5,532 bases of DNA from a virus (Duplodnaviria > Heunggongvirae > Uroviricota > Caudoviricetes). Location: IMG/VR virus record IMGVR_UViG_2734482779_000001. The stretch is one strand, 5' to 3'. Below the pieces are notes generated by a model that saw nothing but the letters and a program-made list of their open reading frames with translations, ran no database searches and was not told the DNA's origin. Positions 1 through 5,111 of this stretch are shown in pieces. The first letter of the stretch is position 1, and each line of letters starts with the position of its first letter. Both the position numbers and the translations under genes were made by a program.

Positions 1-131
1 GTGGCGCATAGCACTGCCAGATGAATAACACATCCCCGTCAATACGGCCCTCGCTGTACGCTTACACCTGTAATCAGGTTTCCGCTTTTTCAGTTGGCTG
101 GTCGTTTAACCGACATAGTTAACCCATTAAT

Positions 132-419
132 CTAGTTGCCGGATGTTGGTGGATTTTCGCGTTTTAGTTGTTCATAAAAGTGCACAGCTTTAACCAATTC
201 TTCTGATGTAACCGGGACTGGTGAGGCAGTGAATAAGGCCTGAATTTGATAGTTCGGCCTGTCGTTACAATCCTCTTTTTTCGGTACATATTTCCAGTCA
301 CCAGACCACTACTTCCCCTGAAAGTCCGTAACGCCTTTTTTCACGTAGCGATATCGCCATGTCACTGGTTTTGCTTGCCCCGCCGTTTCATGCCCTTCCT
401 GATAATTAATCTCGCTCAT
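132..419 (-). pseudogene. Small leftward phage ORF interrupted by an in-frame TAG (36 codons, TAG at 309-311, then 58 sense codons to TAG at 132-134)
   Basis: Hand translation of the minus strand. ATG at 417-419 overlaps the TGA of the upstream small ORF (ATGA junction). The 58-codon continuation after the first TAG has no ATG and only a late in-frame GTG, so it is unlikely to be an independent gene. Not in the ORF track because each piece is under 60 aa. Confidence 0.3.
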
Positions 420-607
420 TCATCGCCCCACTCATCACAATATGCTTCGACCGGAGTTTTTCCCGCTTCATAGTCATCACGCTAGGATTCGACATCAGCA
501 GCACTTCCACCGCGTAACTCACCATAGTCCATTAATAGTTCATCCCGCTCTTCAAAACTGATGTTATATTTAGCTGAACAAAAATCAGCCACTTTGTTCT
601 TCCTCAT
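416..607 (-). pseudogene. Small leftward phage ORF interrupted by an in-frame TAG (41 codons, TAG at 482-484, then 21 sense codons to TGA at 416-418)
   Basis: Hand translation: MRKNKVADFCSAKYNISFEERDELLMDYGELRGGSAADVES, TAG, RDDYEAGKTPVEAYCDEWGDE, TGA. The terminal TGA forms an ATGA overlap with the start of the next ORF, typical of translational coupling. No convincing Shine-Dalgarno upstream. Confidence 0.3.
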
Positions 608-1029
608 CGTCTTTTATTTCGTGGTATGAGTAATTGCAGTAGTTAAAGAAAATTTCTTATGCTCCGTCATGAATTTCATCAGGTGTTGCGTCATCGTCCA
701 CTTCGAATACATCCTCAAAATCTCCACCAGCTATTCCCGTTTCAATAATAATTTTGAACTTTCGCATTTCACTACCGCCCTTTCGGGCGGCCTCCTGATG
801 TTCTGAGGGTGCAGAAATCCATCCGGTTAAGGATTAAGTTTTATTTACAGAACTGAATTTAATTATTCAGATATACGTATCTGTAACCTTACGAATCTAC
901 TCACTGGATGCCTCTTTCATAAAAATAATCCAGTGGGTTTTATCGTTTTTTCCCTGTTCGTTGACAGATAACAGGCTTTCTATCTGTCAGTGCCAGAATC
1001 TGGCTTACCGGTATTTGCGTTTCATTCCA

Positions 1030-1386
1030 TTAAAAAATCAGAACGCCGTGCGGCCTCAACACCCGAAAAGCTTCTTTAAATCTCTGTCGCAAATCATCAC
1101 GCCAGGCATCTTTATTCAGCCGTCCATATTTCTTTCCCATCCAGGCGTTATCACCAACACGCTCAAGATGCGGAGGGTCTAATACAACCATCGAAAAAGA
1201 TGCGTCTGCAAATGATAATGCACGAAAATCTGCGATAATGTCAGGGCTGATAATCAAGCGTCTCCCATTGCGTAATGTGTATCCTTCTTTTCTGATATCG
1301 CTAAATATCGCCCGTTCGTCAGACTTATCGAACCAGAACATGCGGCTGCCACAGCACATATCAAGAATGGTTGCCGGTGCACTCAC
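1030..1386 (-). CDS. Putative SAM-dependent methyltransferase-like protein, short (118 aa), possibly a C-terminally truncated remnant
   Basis: ORF track 1030..1386. Contains ILDMCCGS (glycine-rich motif I-like), VLDPPH (DPP[YFHW]-type catalytic motif) and RVLRPHGVLIF (LKPGG-like strand) in gamma-class order. Start codon is GTG at 1384-1386, overlapping the TGA of the upstream gene (GTGA). Only 118 aa, so a complete Rossmann fold is doubtful. Confidence 0.55.
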   Translation of the reverse strand: MSAPATILDMCCGSRMFWFDKSDERAIFSDIRKEGYTLRNGRRLIISPDIIADFRALSFADASFSMVVLDPPHLERVGDNAWMGKKYGRLNKDAWRDDLRQRFKEAFRVLRPHGVLIF

Positions 1387-1805
1387 TGCGCCACGTCCTG
1401 AAAATTACCCTGATAGAAAGCCAGTATGCGCTGCATAACTTCGCTCTTCCGGCACTCGCGACAGATTATGTTTAGGCGACTGTCGTAGCGACGTATTTCT
1501 CCGTCAGGTGATGACCAGATAAGGTCCGGATCAACCACAGCAGGTTTCTTCACCTTTGCCCTCGAGAGTTTTTTGCGGGCGTTTTGCCAGTCCTTACGCG
1601 CCTGTTCAGAGGGGAATAACCCGTAGCCGGAGTTGTATACATCGCCACTGGCTACCAGCTCTCTGGCAAGAACGCTCATCAGATATCTAGTCGCACCTGT
1701 TTTAGCTTCCAGTTGCCGTAACGTCTCACGGCCGCTCTGGCGCACGAGTTCCACCACCTGCCATTTAATTTTTTCCCGCTCTTCTTGTGTAAAAACTTTT
1801 GCCAC
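1383..1805 (-). CDS. Hypothetical phage protein, 140 aa
   Basis: ORF track 1383..1805. GTG start at 1803-1805 preceded by a strong Shine-Dalgarno (AAGGGGGA) at about 5 nt. Stop overlaps the start of the downstream methyltransferase-like ORF. I recognise no family. Confidence 0.7.
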   Translation of the reverse strand: MAKVFTQEEREKIKWQVVELVRQSGRETLRQLEAKTGATRYLMSVLARELVASGDVYNSGYGLFPSEQARKDWQNARKKLSRAKVKKPAVVDPDLIWSSPDGEIRRYDSRLNIICRECRKSEVMQRILAFYQGNFQDVAQ

Positions 1806-1845
1806 AAGTCCCCCTTAAAATTACCTCATGACCTGAAATCAACAC

Positions 1846-2811
1846 TTATCCTCTGAAACCAGGCGGAATTTCTGTATCCGGTTCAGAAATATGATTAACA
1901 CAACGCTGCACAGGTGAACGTCCCAGGCGGATGACCAGTTCGTCCCATTTTTCGCGGAGCTTTGACGGGCTCATGATGTTTTTTACCCAGAATGGATCTC
2001 GCTGAACCCGACCAAACATTTCGCAAATTTGTCTGTGGCTTCTGCCATCCAGCATCCGCATTGTGCGCACGTCATTGGCCCAGGCAGTCCAGTTAGGCTC
2101 TTTTGGTCGCATGATCTCGCCATCATCACTGGCTGCCTGTTCGTAGAGACCCACGATCCGCCCCCAGATCCACTGCGCACACGCCAAATCCTCCCTGCTA
2201 CCCCACTGGCGTTTTTTCGCACTAAACACAACCGCGTCGGAGTTCCGGGTTAAAAAATCCTGTTCAGTCGTCTGCGGGTCCGGTTGCGAAGCTTCCGGAC
2301 GAAAAGTGTTTTTATTCTCTGTAGTAATCTCTGTTGTATTCTCTGTAAGATCATCAGGCCATTTTGACCCGATGACATTGGGTCGTTTTGAACCAATGGA
2401 GCGTTTCATTTTGACCTCTTCCATCGTGTCATTTTGACCTGATGGAGCGGCGCATTTTGAACCGATGGATTCGCTCAATTTGCCACCATCTAAAAGCTCG
2501 CTCCCATAGTTGATCGTGTAGAAATTGGTCATATCGCGCTTTGATTTATTGAGCTTTTCACAACGCAAAAGCCCCAGCGTTTTCAGACTTGCAAACGCGC
2601 GCTTTAACGTTGACTCTGACCAGAATGGGAACTGTTCCAGCCATTGTTCCGTTGTGTTATAAATCCAGCGAACACCATCACATTCCATGCCGGAGTTGGT
2701 ATCTCTCAACCAGTAGTGCAGTTGTTGCAAAACAATGGCTTCGTTTAAGCCAATTTTCATTGCCAGCTGCGTGTTTATAACCAGTGGGCGTTCAGCAAAA
2801 AGAAGGCTCAT
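1846..2811 (-). CDS. Phage replication initiator / replisome organiser (lambda O-like), with origin iterons inside the gene
   Basis: ORF track gives 1846..2865, but the codon at 2863-2865 is TTG. The first ATG (2809-2811) has a GGATGGA Shine-Dalgarno about 6 nt upstream, so 2811 is the preferred start (321 aa). N-terminal region looks like a winged-helix replisome-organiser domain; the middle is a low-complexity linker with repeated IGSK encoded by the iteron DNA; a conserved-looking C-terminal domain follows. Position after the cro-like and second early genes matches lambdoid layout. Confidence 0.8.
   Translation of the reverse strand: MSLLFAERPLVINTQLAMKIGLNEAIVLQQLHYWLRDTNSGMECDGVRWIYNTTEQWLEQFPFWSESTLKRAFASLKTLGLLRCEKLNKSKRDMTNFYTINYGSELLDGGKLSESIGSKCAAPSGQNDTMEEVKMKRSIGSKRPNVIGSKWPDDLTENTTEITTENKNTFRPEASQPDPQTTEQDFLTRNSDAVVFSAKKRQWGSREDLACAQWIWGRIVGLYEQAASDDGEIMRPKEPNWTAWANDVRTMRMLDGRSHRQICEMFGRVQRDPFWVKNIMSPSKLREKWDELVIRLGRSPVQRCVNHISEPDTEIPPGFRG
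2360..2468. repeat. Five direct repeats (iterons) at about 23-bp spacing, putative phage origin of replication
   Basis: Copies starting 2360, 2384, 2407, 2430, 2453: CATTTTGACCCGATG, CGTTTTGAACCAATGG, CATTTTGACCT(cttccatcg), CATTTTGACCTGATGG, CATTTTGAACCGATGG. An AT-rich stretch with short direct repeats (ATTCTCTGTA) lies at 2300-2350, immediately downstream in gene orientation, as in lambda ori inside O. Confidence 0.6.
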
Positions 2812-3313
2812 AATTCCATCCAGCTTTTTGTTGGTATTGCTGTCGATACGCAAGCTTGAAAGCAATTGCTTTTTCTATAAGTTCGTCAGTTTCACGATCC
2901 ACTACGGCAGGATCAGCAAAAAGCAGTCCGGACTCCACCACATCGCCATATTCTTTGTTTAACCCGGCGATCATGCACGTGATGCTTTTTCCGTCAGTAA
3001 TTTCACGATACAACCTGAAATCACTAATCCGGATAGCCTCCATAATCGCAGGCACTAGCGCCGTGAACTTTTCACGCTTATCCCTGGTGTCGATAGCCTT
3101 CCAGCGTTCGAATATCTTCACTCGATTAACACCAAGCGCTCGCTGATCAACCGCGCCACCTTCATCTGTGACACGCTGAACATCGATGTTCGGGCGCTCT
3201 TTCAAAGCCCAGAATGCTTCAGTGATTAATATCGTCGCCTGCTCCTGTGTCATTCCTGGTCGACATATCCAGGCATCCAGAGCCTCACGAGCCTGTTCAG
3301 GAGTGATTTTCAT
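2792..3313 (-). CDS. Phage early protein, 173 aa, in the cII position; possibly YdaT-family
   Basis: ORF track 2792..3313. ATG at 3311-3313 overlaps the dicC stop by 17 nt, and its stop overlaps the replication initiator start. The YdaT-like call rests on gene position and general resemblance from memory, not on an alignment. Confidence 0.7.
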   Translation of the reverse strand: MKITPEQAREALDAWICRPGMTQEQATILITEAFWALKERPNIDVQRVTDEGGAVDQRALGVNRVKIFERWKAIDTRDKREKFTALVPAIMEAIRISDFRLYREITDGKSITCMIAGLNKEYGDVVESGLLFADPAVVDRETDELIEKAIAFKLAYRQQYQQKAGWNYEPSFC

Positions 3314-3527
3314 TGTTCAACCGCCCCGCCCGCTTCGTCTTACGATATTCATCATAAACTTTGGGATCATACTGAAGCTCCCCGCCAGATGCCTCCTGTA
3401 GACGCATCGCGCGACCTTCGGGAACTAAATCCCCTTTCCAGCTATAAAGCGAAGCCAAACGAATACCTGCTGCTTGTGCAAGTTTTGTTTTTGAACCGAA
3501 ATACAAAAGAGCGTCAGTTTTAAGCAT
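3297..3527 (-). CDS. dicC: DicC, cro-like repressor of the dicB division-inhibition operon (76 aa)
   Basis: ORF track 3297..3527. Translation MLKTDALLYFGSKTKLAQAAGIRLASLYSWKGDLVPEGRAMRLQEASGGELQYDPKVYDEYRKTKRAGRLNNENHS matches my recollection of E. coli K-12 DicC. AAGGTG Shine-Dalgarno about 8 nt upstream; divergent from dicA. Confidence 0.9.
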   Translation of the reverse strand: MLKTDALLYFGSKTKLAQAAGIRLASLYSWKGDLVPEGRAMRLQEASGGELQYDPKVYDEYRKTKRAGRLNNENHS

Positions 3528-3610
3528 TTAAAACACCTTTATTGTTAGTCATAACTAACAAGATAGATGTTAACAAAAACATAGTCAATACGATTTAGCA
3601 TTAGCTAACT
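3528..3610. promoter_or_regulatory. Divergent dicA-dicC control region with operator-like palindromes
   Basis: Perfect 20-bp palindrome TTGTTAGTCATAACTAACAA at 3542-3561 and 14-bp dyad TTAGCATTAGCTAA at 3595-3608, sharing the core TTAG(T/C)-N4-(A/G)CTAA. Additional short dyad ATGTT-N6-AACAT at 3568-3583. The 83-bp spacer between divergent start codons must carry both promoters. Confidence 0.6.
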
Positions 3611-4018
3611 ATGGAAACAAAAAATTTAACTATCGGCGAACGCATCAGGTATCGTCGGAAAAACCTCAAACACACCCAAAGGTCTCTTGCTAAAGCCCTG
3701 AAAATCTCCCATGTGTCTGTATCACAATGGGAACGGGGTGATAGTGAACCTACAGGGAAGAACCTTTTTGCCCTCAGCAAAGTATTGCAATGCTCACCAA
3801 CATGGATTCTATTTGGCGATGAAGACAAGCAACCAACACCACCTGTTGAGAAGCCAGTTGCCTTATCCCCCAAAGAACTAGAGCTCCTTGAGCTGTTTAA
3901 TGCACTGCCAGAATCAGAACAGGATACCCAGCTCGCCGAAATGCGAGCTCGAGTAAGAAACTTCAATAAACTCTTTGAAGAATTACTAAAAGCCCGTCAG
4001 CGGACAAATAAAAGATAA
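3611..4018 (+). CDS. dicA: DicA, XRE/HTH-family repressor of dicB operon (135 aa)
   Basis: ORF track 3611..4018. Translation (METKNLTIGERIRYRRKNLKHTQRSLAKALKISHVSVSQWERGD...) matches my recollection of K-12 DicA. HTH motif near the N-terminus. Confidence 0.93.
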   Translation: METKNLTIGERIRYRRKNLKHTQRSLAKALKISHVSVSQWERGDSEPTGKNLFALSKVLQCSPTWILFGDEDKQPTPPVEKPVALSPKELELLELFNALPESEQDTQLAEMRARVRNFNKLFEELLKARQRTNKR

Positions 4019-5058: not shown

Positions 5059-5111
5059 TTTCTGGTGACGTTTGGCGGTATCAGTTTTACTCCGTGACTG
5101 CTCTGCCGCCC
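5059..5111 (+). ncRNA. dicF: DicF small regulatory RNA (53 nt), ftsZ-targeting division inhibitor, followed by T-run 5112-5116
   Basis: Sequence TTTCTGGTGACGTTTGGCGGTATCAGTTTTACTCCGTGACTGCTCTGCCGCCC followed by TTTTT matches my recollection of K-12 DicF. Located between ydfC and dicB as in the dicB operon. Confidence 0.85.

Follow-up and report, generated by a model that had tools for sequence, protein, structure and literature searches.

Amber codons inside two small coupled genes of a Qin-type Escherichia coli prophage are most probably ordinary nonsense mutations

Introduction

Amber codons at positions where relatives carry glutamine or tryptophan are found in the amber (sus) mutants of phage lambda and in phages that have recoded TAG to glutamine (genetic code 15). 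In bacteria, conserved in-frame stops with dN/dS below 1 have been argued to be common, the nonsense codons being shared by many genomes (Belinky et al. 2021, PMC7918605). The locus described here can be set beside these cases and beside two closer relatives, the dicA-dicC-dicF region of the Qin (Kim) cryptic prophage and an intact DUF7167 / phrog_519 / phrog_660 gene cassette carried by vB_EcoS-689R5, vB_Apl-pPE4, E. coli 05-3629 and 2020S05-013-17.

The DNA analyzed is a 5,532-nt stretch (IMG/VR record IMGVR_UViG_2734482779_000001, Caudoviricetes), referred to as the window, in which two small coupled leftward reading frames, ORF1 and ORF2, are interrupted by in-frame TAG codons. Its sequence is identical to that of the Qin region over positions 66-1500. 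The copy of that prophage in strain IAI1 has the same dicC / ydaT-like / O-like / DUF977 order and the same internal stops, and in both the DicF RNA lies on the other side; unlike the known Qin copies, the window has an IS66-family insertion at 65/66. With the intact cassette it shares the three genes, their order and their overlapping stop/start junctions (ATGA; ATGGCTGA / GTGGCTGA) at 80-93% nucleotide identity, but where the window copies are interrupted and truncated, those of the cassette read a sense codon (TGG; CAG or CCG) and retain their full C-termini. Like the sus mutants and code-15 phages, the window has TAG where relatives have Gln or Trp; unlike them, it has no suppressor tRNA in the window, carries non-amber stops and frameshifts, and shows relaxed selection, and the affected genes belong to the early accessory set of a defective prophage. 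Its nonsense codons are common to many genomes, as in the conserved-readthrough cases, but here they are shared by descent in a young haplotype, with downstream indels and a dN/dS nearing 1. Most probably the TAGs arose by ordinary nonsense mutation in accessory genes, now dead, of a Qin-type cryptic prophage.

Identity and context of the locus

Over 66-1500 the window matches E. coli IAI1 and many other natural isolates at 100% identity. The IAI1 annotation lists dicC, dicA and ydfA-C alongside the pseudogenes, and synteny with it yields the divergent dicA/dicC repressor pair with ydfA-ydfC next to dicA that is characteristic of Qin-type prophages (Table 1). The DicF antisense RNA confirms a Qin-type dic region. 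The stretch as a whole represents the immunity and early region, with dicA, dicC and DicF, of a cryptic lambdoid prophage of the Qin type in E. coli.

In all likelihood, window 66-1386 consists of four dead accessory genes, namely a methyltransferase gene, a DUF7167 gene, ORF1 and ORF2. This block is the most distal part of the cro-side early operon (dicC, ydaT-like, O-like, DUF977 and others), and the adjoining genes, encoding DUF977, an O-like replication protein, a YdaT-like protein and DicC, are intact. PGAP, the NCBI annotation pipeline, flags three pseudogenes in IAI1 (ECIAI1_RS25525, RS25915 and RS08200): ORF2 ('hypothetical protein; frameshifted; internal stop'), the DUF7167 gene ('internal stop') and the SAM-dependent methyltransferase ('frameshifted; internal stop'), with no feature annotated on ORF1. 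Pseudogene decay at this locus is already known in the sense that standard annotation flags it in hundreds of strains.

A record deposited as 'Escherichia phage PhiR42_1, complete genome' (PV340562.1) is 99% identical to the window region and has the same stops in a dicA/dicC/flxA context. Judged by this content, PhiR42_1 resembles a defective prophage of the Qin type more than it does a functional phage.

Table 1. Features of the window
Feature	Position	Strand	Remarks
IS66-family (ISEc8-like) element end, terminal 65 bases	1..65		In 3' part of ORF2 pseudogene
ORF2 pseudogene	66..419	-	Ancestral 119-171 aa; phrog_660, function unknown
A6 homopolymer run, slippage site	336..341	-	ORF2 codons 27-28; length varies between lineages
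ORF1 pseudogene	416..592	-	Ancestral 58 aa; phrog_519, function unknown
DUF7167 pseudogene	585..767	-	Ochre TAA 657-659; ancestral AAA Lys, codon 37
SAM-dependent methyltransferase pseudogene	897..1386	-	TAA 1030-1032 (ancestral AAA); +1 frameshift near 950-955
dicC counterpart	3297-3527	-	Synteny with IAI1 annotation; identity measured over window 66-1500 only
dicA counterpart	3611-4018	+	Synteny with IAI1 annotation; identity measured over window 66-1500 only
DicF antisense RNA	5060-5111	+	Rfam RF00039, 76.7 bits (gathering score 48); Qin-type feature

Homologues of ORF1 and ORF2 cross the amber codons

On the minus strand, the two frames run as an earlier sequence-only reading had described them: 41 codons, TAG (482-484), 21 codons and an ATGA junction (416-419) into ORF2, which reads 36 codons, TAG (309-311), 58 codons, TAG (132-134), 13 codons and TGA (90-92). 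That reading regarded the segments beyond the stops as protein-like, and both profile and homology searches agree. Masked at its stop, ORF1 matches the phrog_519 profile HMM over residues 1-58 (E 1.6e-13); ORF2, with its stops masked, matches phrog_660 over residues 2-93 (E 1.4e-27). Homologues spanning the stops were found by tblastn in 166 phage records for ORF1 and 78 for ORF2, rather than separate short genes ending at the TAGs. The 58-codon segment of ORF2, said to lack an internal start, indeed has no ATG, although in-frame GTG and TTG codons occur in it.

These matches bear on the proposal that the frames are not genes and that the stretches after the TAGs are open by coincidence. Both ORFs are short, and neither has a Pfam family; Pfam and NCBIfam searches with the intact homologues of both returned no family, only PHROG families of unknown function matching. 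Against chance stand the stop-spanning HMM matches, with E values of 1e-13 and 1e-27, and hundreds of intact phage and prophage homologues under purifying selection. Coincidence is excluded by these matches, its probability being negligible.

The homologues have a sense codon at each amber position: TGG in ORF1, CAG, CCG or CTG at the first TAG of ORF2, and CAG at the second. Two features of a nonsense pseudogene are seen here, a sense codon one substitution away at each stop and homology continuing in frame beyond it. As read from the alleles, the comparison shows the TAGs to be single-transition nonsense changes, TGG to TAG at codon 37 of ORF1 and CAG to TAG both at codon 37 of ORF2 and at its second stop. 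Dcm (CCWGG) deamination hotspots were considered as the source of the CAG to TAG changes and rejected; the contexts AAGCAGTGG, AATCAGGTT and GCATGGCG are not CCWGG sites.

The amber codon of ORF1

The ATG at 605-607 had been taken as the start of ORF1. Intact copies of the same allele place the ancestral start at GTG 590-592 instead, where it overlaps the stop codon of DUF7167, the gene upstream; homologues have ATG or GTG at this position. Counted from it, TAG 482-484 is codon 37, ancestrally TGG (Trp), and the original TGA (416-418) overlaps the ORF2 ATG, as in intact copies of 58 aa. Every intact copy has TGG at codon 37, where the window lineage has TAG. The GTG start and the many N-terminal amino-acid differences of the window copy were both considered as signs of decay and rejected; they are allelic, because an intact gut-metagenome copy, P0001, uses the GTG start and carries the same unusual N-terminus, which makes this a mosaic allele. 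The 21 codons 3' of the TAG encode a protein sequence identical to that of intact homologues.

The window and the metagenome contig ERZ27268133, otherwise 99% identical, differ at 13 positions, and 7 of these fall within 29 nt (window 464-492) that include the TAG. Such crowding points to a short tract of recombination or to mutation in a cluster. The immediate origin of the ORF1 TAG would then be such an event and not a simple isolated point mutation, which counts against a simple-decay reading. Every 'VES' haplotype recovered in the protein search has the stop, either as truncated proteins (P0029, P0033) or as 'VESQ' calls; among the latter, the DNA of P0004 was inspected and reads TAG.

Phage vB_EcoM-606R7 also has TAG at the Trp-37 codon of its ORF1 (428-614 of its locus), on a different haplotype (GCC GAT GCA TAG, against GTC GAA TCC TAG in the window). 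Given the flanking differences, this codon was probably struck independently in 606R7. Strains of the EC590 type have a separate IS66-family insertion inside ORF1.

ORF2 carries stops, a deletion and an IS junction

The first TAG of ORF2 is codon 37. Intact alleles are 119 aa (689R5, pPE4, 606R7, 2020S05), 104 aa (RIVM_C039205) or 171 aa (05-3629) long. In alignment with the 171-aa allele, TAG 132-134 replaces a CAG of strain 05-3629, and a 4-bp deletion near window 101-103 brings TGA 90-92 into frame. The earlier statement that no interruption is a frameshift is therefore wrong for the tail of ORF2, whose original C-terminus runs out of frame after the deletion until the IS cut at 65/66. The same alignment has a 90-bp in-frame gap near 145-160, between two NPP-encoding repeats; this gap may reflect allelic variation instead of damage.

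Window 1-65 is 98.5% identical to ISEc8/IS66 ends. All strain matches begin at position 66, and the minus strand across the junction reads ...ACAGGT|GTAAGCG.... None of the 5,426 RefSeq complete E. coli genomes contains the junction, and a search of GTDB species representatives with window 46-85 gave no match.

The A-run of ORF2 is a further variable site: the 640R1-type lineage has A8 there, and strain 58-3 lacks 1 nt next to the run. The 85-aa ORF annotated in phage 640R1 was considered as a real alternative protein and rejected as the +2-shifted frame that follows the A6 to A8 change; its product matches phrog_660 over residues 2-31 only, i.e. before the shift. A programmed -1 frameshift at the run was also rejected: the zero frame reads GTG AAA AAA GGC, which puts A AAA AAG out of register, and no alternative-frame product is conserved, the homology of the 640R1 product ending at residue 31.

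Non-amber lesions in the neighbouring genes and the genetic code

The two genes upstream of ORF1 are broken by lesions of other kinds. The DUF7167 gene matches Pfam PF23768 (E 1.9e-13; 50.7 bits against a cut-off of 24.4) when its TAA is read as K in a conceptual translation, and the methyltransferase lesions were defined by alignment to the Stx2c phage EH0430. Over the 1.3-kb block the tally is three TAG, two TAA, two frameshifts and one IS insertion. The earlier claim that all internal stops are amber is thus right for ORF1 and ORF2 and fails for their neighbours, where both stops are TAA. The two ochre stops, 657-659 and 1030-1032, are the same change, AAA (Lys) to TAA, an A-to-T transversion.

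This mixture weighs on amber-suppressor dependence, which the earlier reading had listed as an option. Under this option, a supE/supF-type host tRNA or a phage suppressor tRNA would insert Gln, Tyr or Trp at the TAGs, giving full-length ORF1 and ORF2 proteins. All three stops inside the two frames are TAG, two of the three replace CAG (Gln), as in TAG-to-Gln recoded phages, and a public gene caller translated them as Q. However, TGG and CAG are mere transition neighbours of TAG, and the two TAA, two frameshifts and the IS truncation of the block are beyond repair by an amber suppressor, which could restore none of the four genes except ORF1; past 132-134, ORF2 is frameshifted anyway. ARAGORN found no tRNA gene at all, and hence none with a CUA anticodon, in the 5.5-kb window. 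Amber suppressors are generally laboratory mutations, and the haplotype is present in about 460 diverse natural isolates. The TAG-bearing alleles also show relaxed constraint and stacked lesions. Suppression or recoding is accordingly highly improbable, and neutral decay of dispensable genes most probably accounts for the stops instead.

The Q translations deserve separate mention. Public calls P0003, P0004, P0026 and P0032 have Q at TAG positions, and under table 11 such proteins mismatch their own DNA, which for P0004 reads TAG; the idea that these 'VESQ' proteins are revertants was rejected for P0004 on that ground. On Logan contig SRR14369142_2348619, in-frame TAGs within 205-399 and 396-725 were called as Gln, giving 64-aa and 109-aa products, and the 109-aa call, the neighbour of P0004, is exactly the read-through frame described in the sequence-only reading. 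The Q calls are apparently an artefact of alternative-genetic-code gene calling on an amber pseudogene cluster in a short contig. Such clusters can mislead alternative-code gene callers into false TAG-to-Gln recoding, and false recoded products of this locus are already in public protein collections.

Distribution and order of the lesions

Of the 5,426 complete E. coli genomes, 457 contain the exact 91-nt patch around the ORF1 TAG. For the 81 nt around the codon-37 TAG of ORF2, 487 genomes match exactly and a further 718 at 95-99% identity; sampled members of the latter class are of the A8 type and have the TAG as well. By extrapolation from these sampled representatives rather than a direct count, the ORF2 codon-37 TAG is estimated to occur in about 1,200 genomes. 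Nonsense decay in a cryptic prophage, another option of the earlier reading, is upheld by the sense codons of the homologues, the Qin-type locus and the PGAP-flagged pseudogenes; its description as recent needs qualifying, as the stops are fixed in a widespread haplotype and not very recent.

The distribution of stops among alleles also gives their order. The ORF2 codon-37 TAG is common to three diverged lineages (window, AST262 and 640R1 types), two of which, AST262 and 640R1, keep ORF1 and DUF7167 intact and lack the DUF7167 TAA. ORF2 therefore broke first, because its TAG spans lineages in which the other two genes are intact. Contigs ERZ27268133 and ERZ28575876 have the DUF7167 TAA together with the ORF2 TAG or TAGs, yet TGG in ORF1, which places the DUF7167 TAA before the ORF1 TAG. 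As reconstructed from these alleles, the decay is shown to be stepwise, passing from ORF2 to DUF7167 and then to ORF1. Seen across E. coli strains, the intermediates of this decay form a clear, ordered series. The locus carries little biological weight, being a textbook example of how a defective prophage loses dispensable genes step by step.

Constraint is relaxed on the amber-bearing alleles

A comparison of 16 loci from phages and E. coli chromosomes and 4 metagenome contigs provides further evidence. Every codon-37-TAG allele of ORF2 examined has additional lesions, whereas all six sense-codon alleles are intact. The window type and AST262 have the second TAG and the 4-bp deletion; the 640R1 type has the A6 to A8 change (PGAP, 'frameshifted; internal stop'); strain 58-3 has a 1-nt deletion; and contig ERZ28575876 has two 1-nt deletions. 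IS elements have entered TAG-bearing ORF2 twice, an IS3 in strain 142 and the IS66-family element in the window. Among the alleles examined, indels and the IS3 and IS66-family insertions occur on TAG alleles only. The frame 3' of the TAG is not maintained, with frameshifts in the 640R1-type, 58-3 and ERZ28575876 alleles.

Substitution patterns point the same way. Nei-Gojobori dN/dS is 0.17-0.30 for intact alleles and 0.65-2.1 for TAG-bearing ones, the latter on only 1-2 synonymous and 5-8 nonsynonymous differences. In the segments 3' of the TAGs, the counts are again small and dN/dS is 0.26 for the window against both 640R1 and F5505 (Sd 2 / Nd 2) and 0.8-1.4 for AST262 pairs. These ratios suggest purifying selection on the intact relatives of ORF1 and ORF2 and relaxed constraint on the TAG-bearing copies. 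Synonymous divergence among the TAG-bearing alleles is about 0.02-0.06, so the protein-like look of the sequence 3' of the TAGs can be put down to the little time that has elapsed.

The same data address the possibility that the in-frame stops are leaky and kept as expression dampers, with low readthrough giving a little functional protein and the frame under selection. The TAG alleles are widespread and stable, and the 21 codons after the ORF1 TAG are protein-identical to intact homologues. Low divergence explains that conservation, however, and the frames 3' of the TAGs are not kept: independent indels and IS insertions have accumulated on TAG alleles only, and dN/dS is about 0.7-2 on them against about 0.2 on intact alleles, with small counts. 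A full ORF2 product would also need readthrough of two TAGs and correction of a frameshift. Maintained leaky stops are very unlikely.

Neutral decay is also sufficient for the number of stops. Window-lineage-specific changes in DUF7167, ORF1 and ORF2 comprise 13 nonsynonymous, 7 synonymous and 1 nonsense; this count leaves out the ORF1 TAG, which is common to 606R7, and rises to 2 nonsense with it. Random mutation would be expected to give about 1.1 nonsense changes in that many substitutions, so one or two observed need no cause beyond neutral decay.

This expectation tells against adaptive inactivation, in which ORF1, ORF2 or both harm the lysogen (cf. kil-type early genes) and null alleles are positively selected. 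The best hint of such selection is the 606R7 TAG, probably independent and at the same ORF1 Trp codon on a different haplotype. There are, in addition, five nonsense mutations in about 1.3 kb, an estimated 1,200 genomes have the ORF2 codon-37 TAG, and ORF2 is broken in the phage records 640R1 and 813R8. A 58-codon gene nevertheless has few codons one step from a stop, which makes a repeat hit not very unlikely, and intact alleles persist under purifying selection in many prophages. We consider adaptive inactivation unlikely. Taken as one proposition, non-neutral null alleles, whether recurrently selected as the small proteins harm the lysogen or kept as leaky dampers, appear distinctly unlikely from these allele patterns.

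Expected consequences for expression

If the stops are ordinary nonsense mutations, they would have arisen and become fixed in genes that were dispensable and probably unexpressed in a repressed defective prophage. Release factor 1 would end translation at each TAG, leaving peptides of at most 36 aa. The coding-looking sequence 3' of the TAGs would go untranslated and would keep its protein-like character only for lack of time. The ATGA overlap and the overlap with DUF7167 would be remnants of translational coupling in an intact ancestral operon. Trace readthrough at the TAGs is conceivable alongside decay. Within the element itself, none of the eight intact window genes ends in TAG, and so its use as a terminator was not seen there.

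Broken copies also occur in phage records, of ORF2 in 640R1 and 813R8 and of ORF1 in 606R7. If these records represent viable phages, this fits dispensability of both genes for phage growth.

Upstream of DUF7167, the minus strand contains a hairpin, GGCCGCCC-GAAA-GGGCGGT (window 774-796), flanked by an AGGAGG motif and by the start codon of DUF7167 (765-767). The hairpin is invariant in all four aligned sequences (the window, IAI1, PhiR42_1 and 640R1). It might bring the Shine-Dalgarno sequence near the start codon, or it might be a processing or termination signal.
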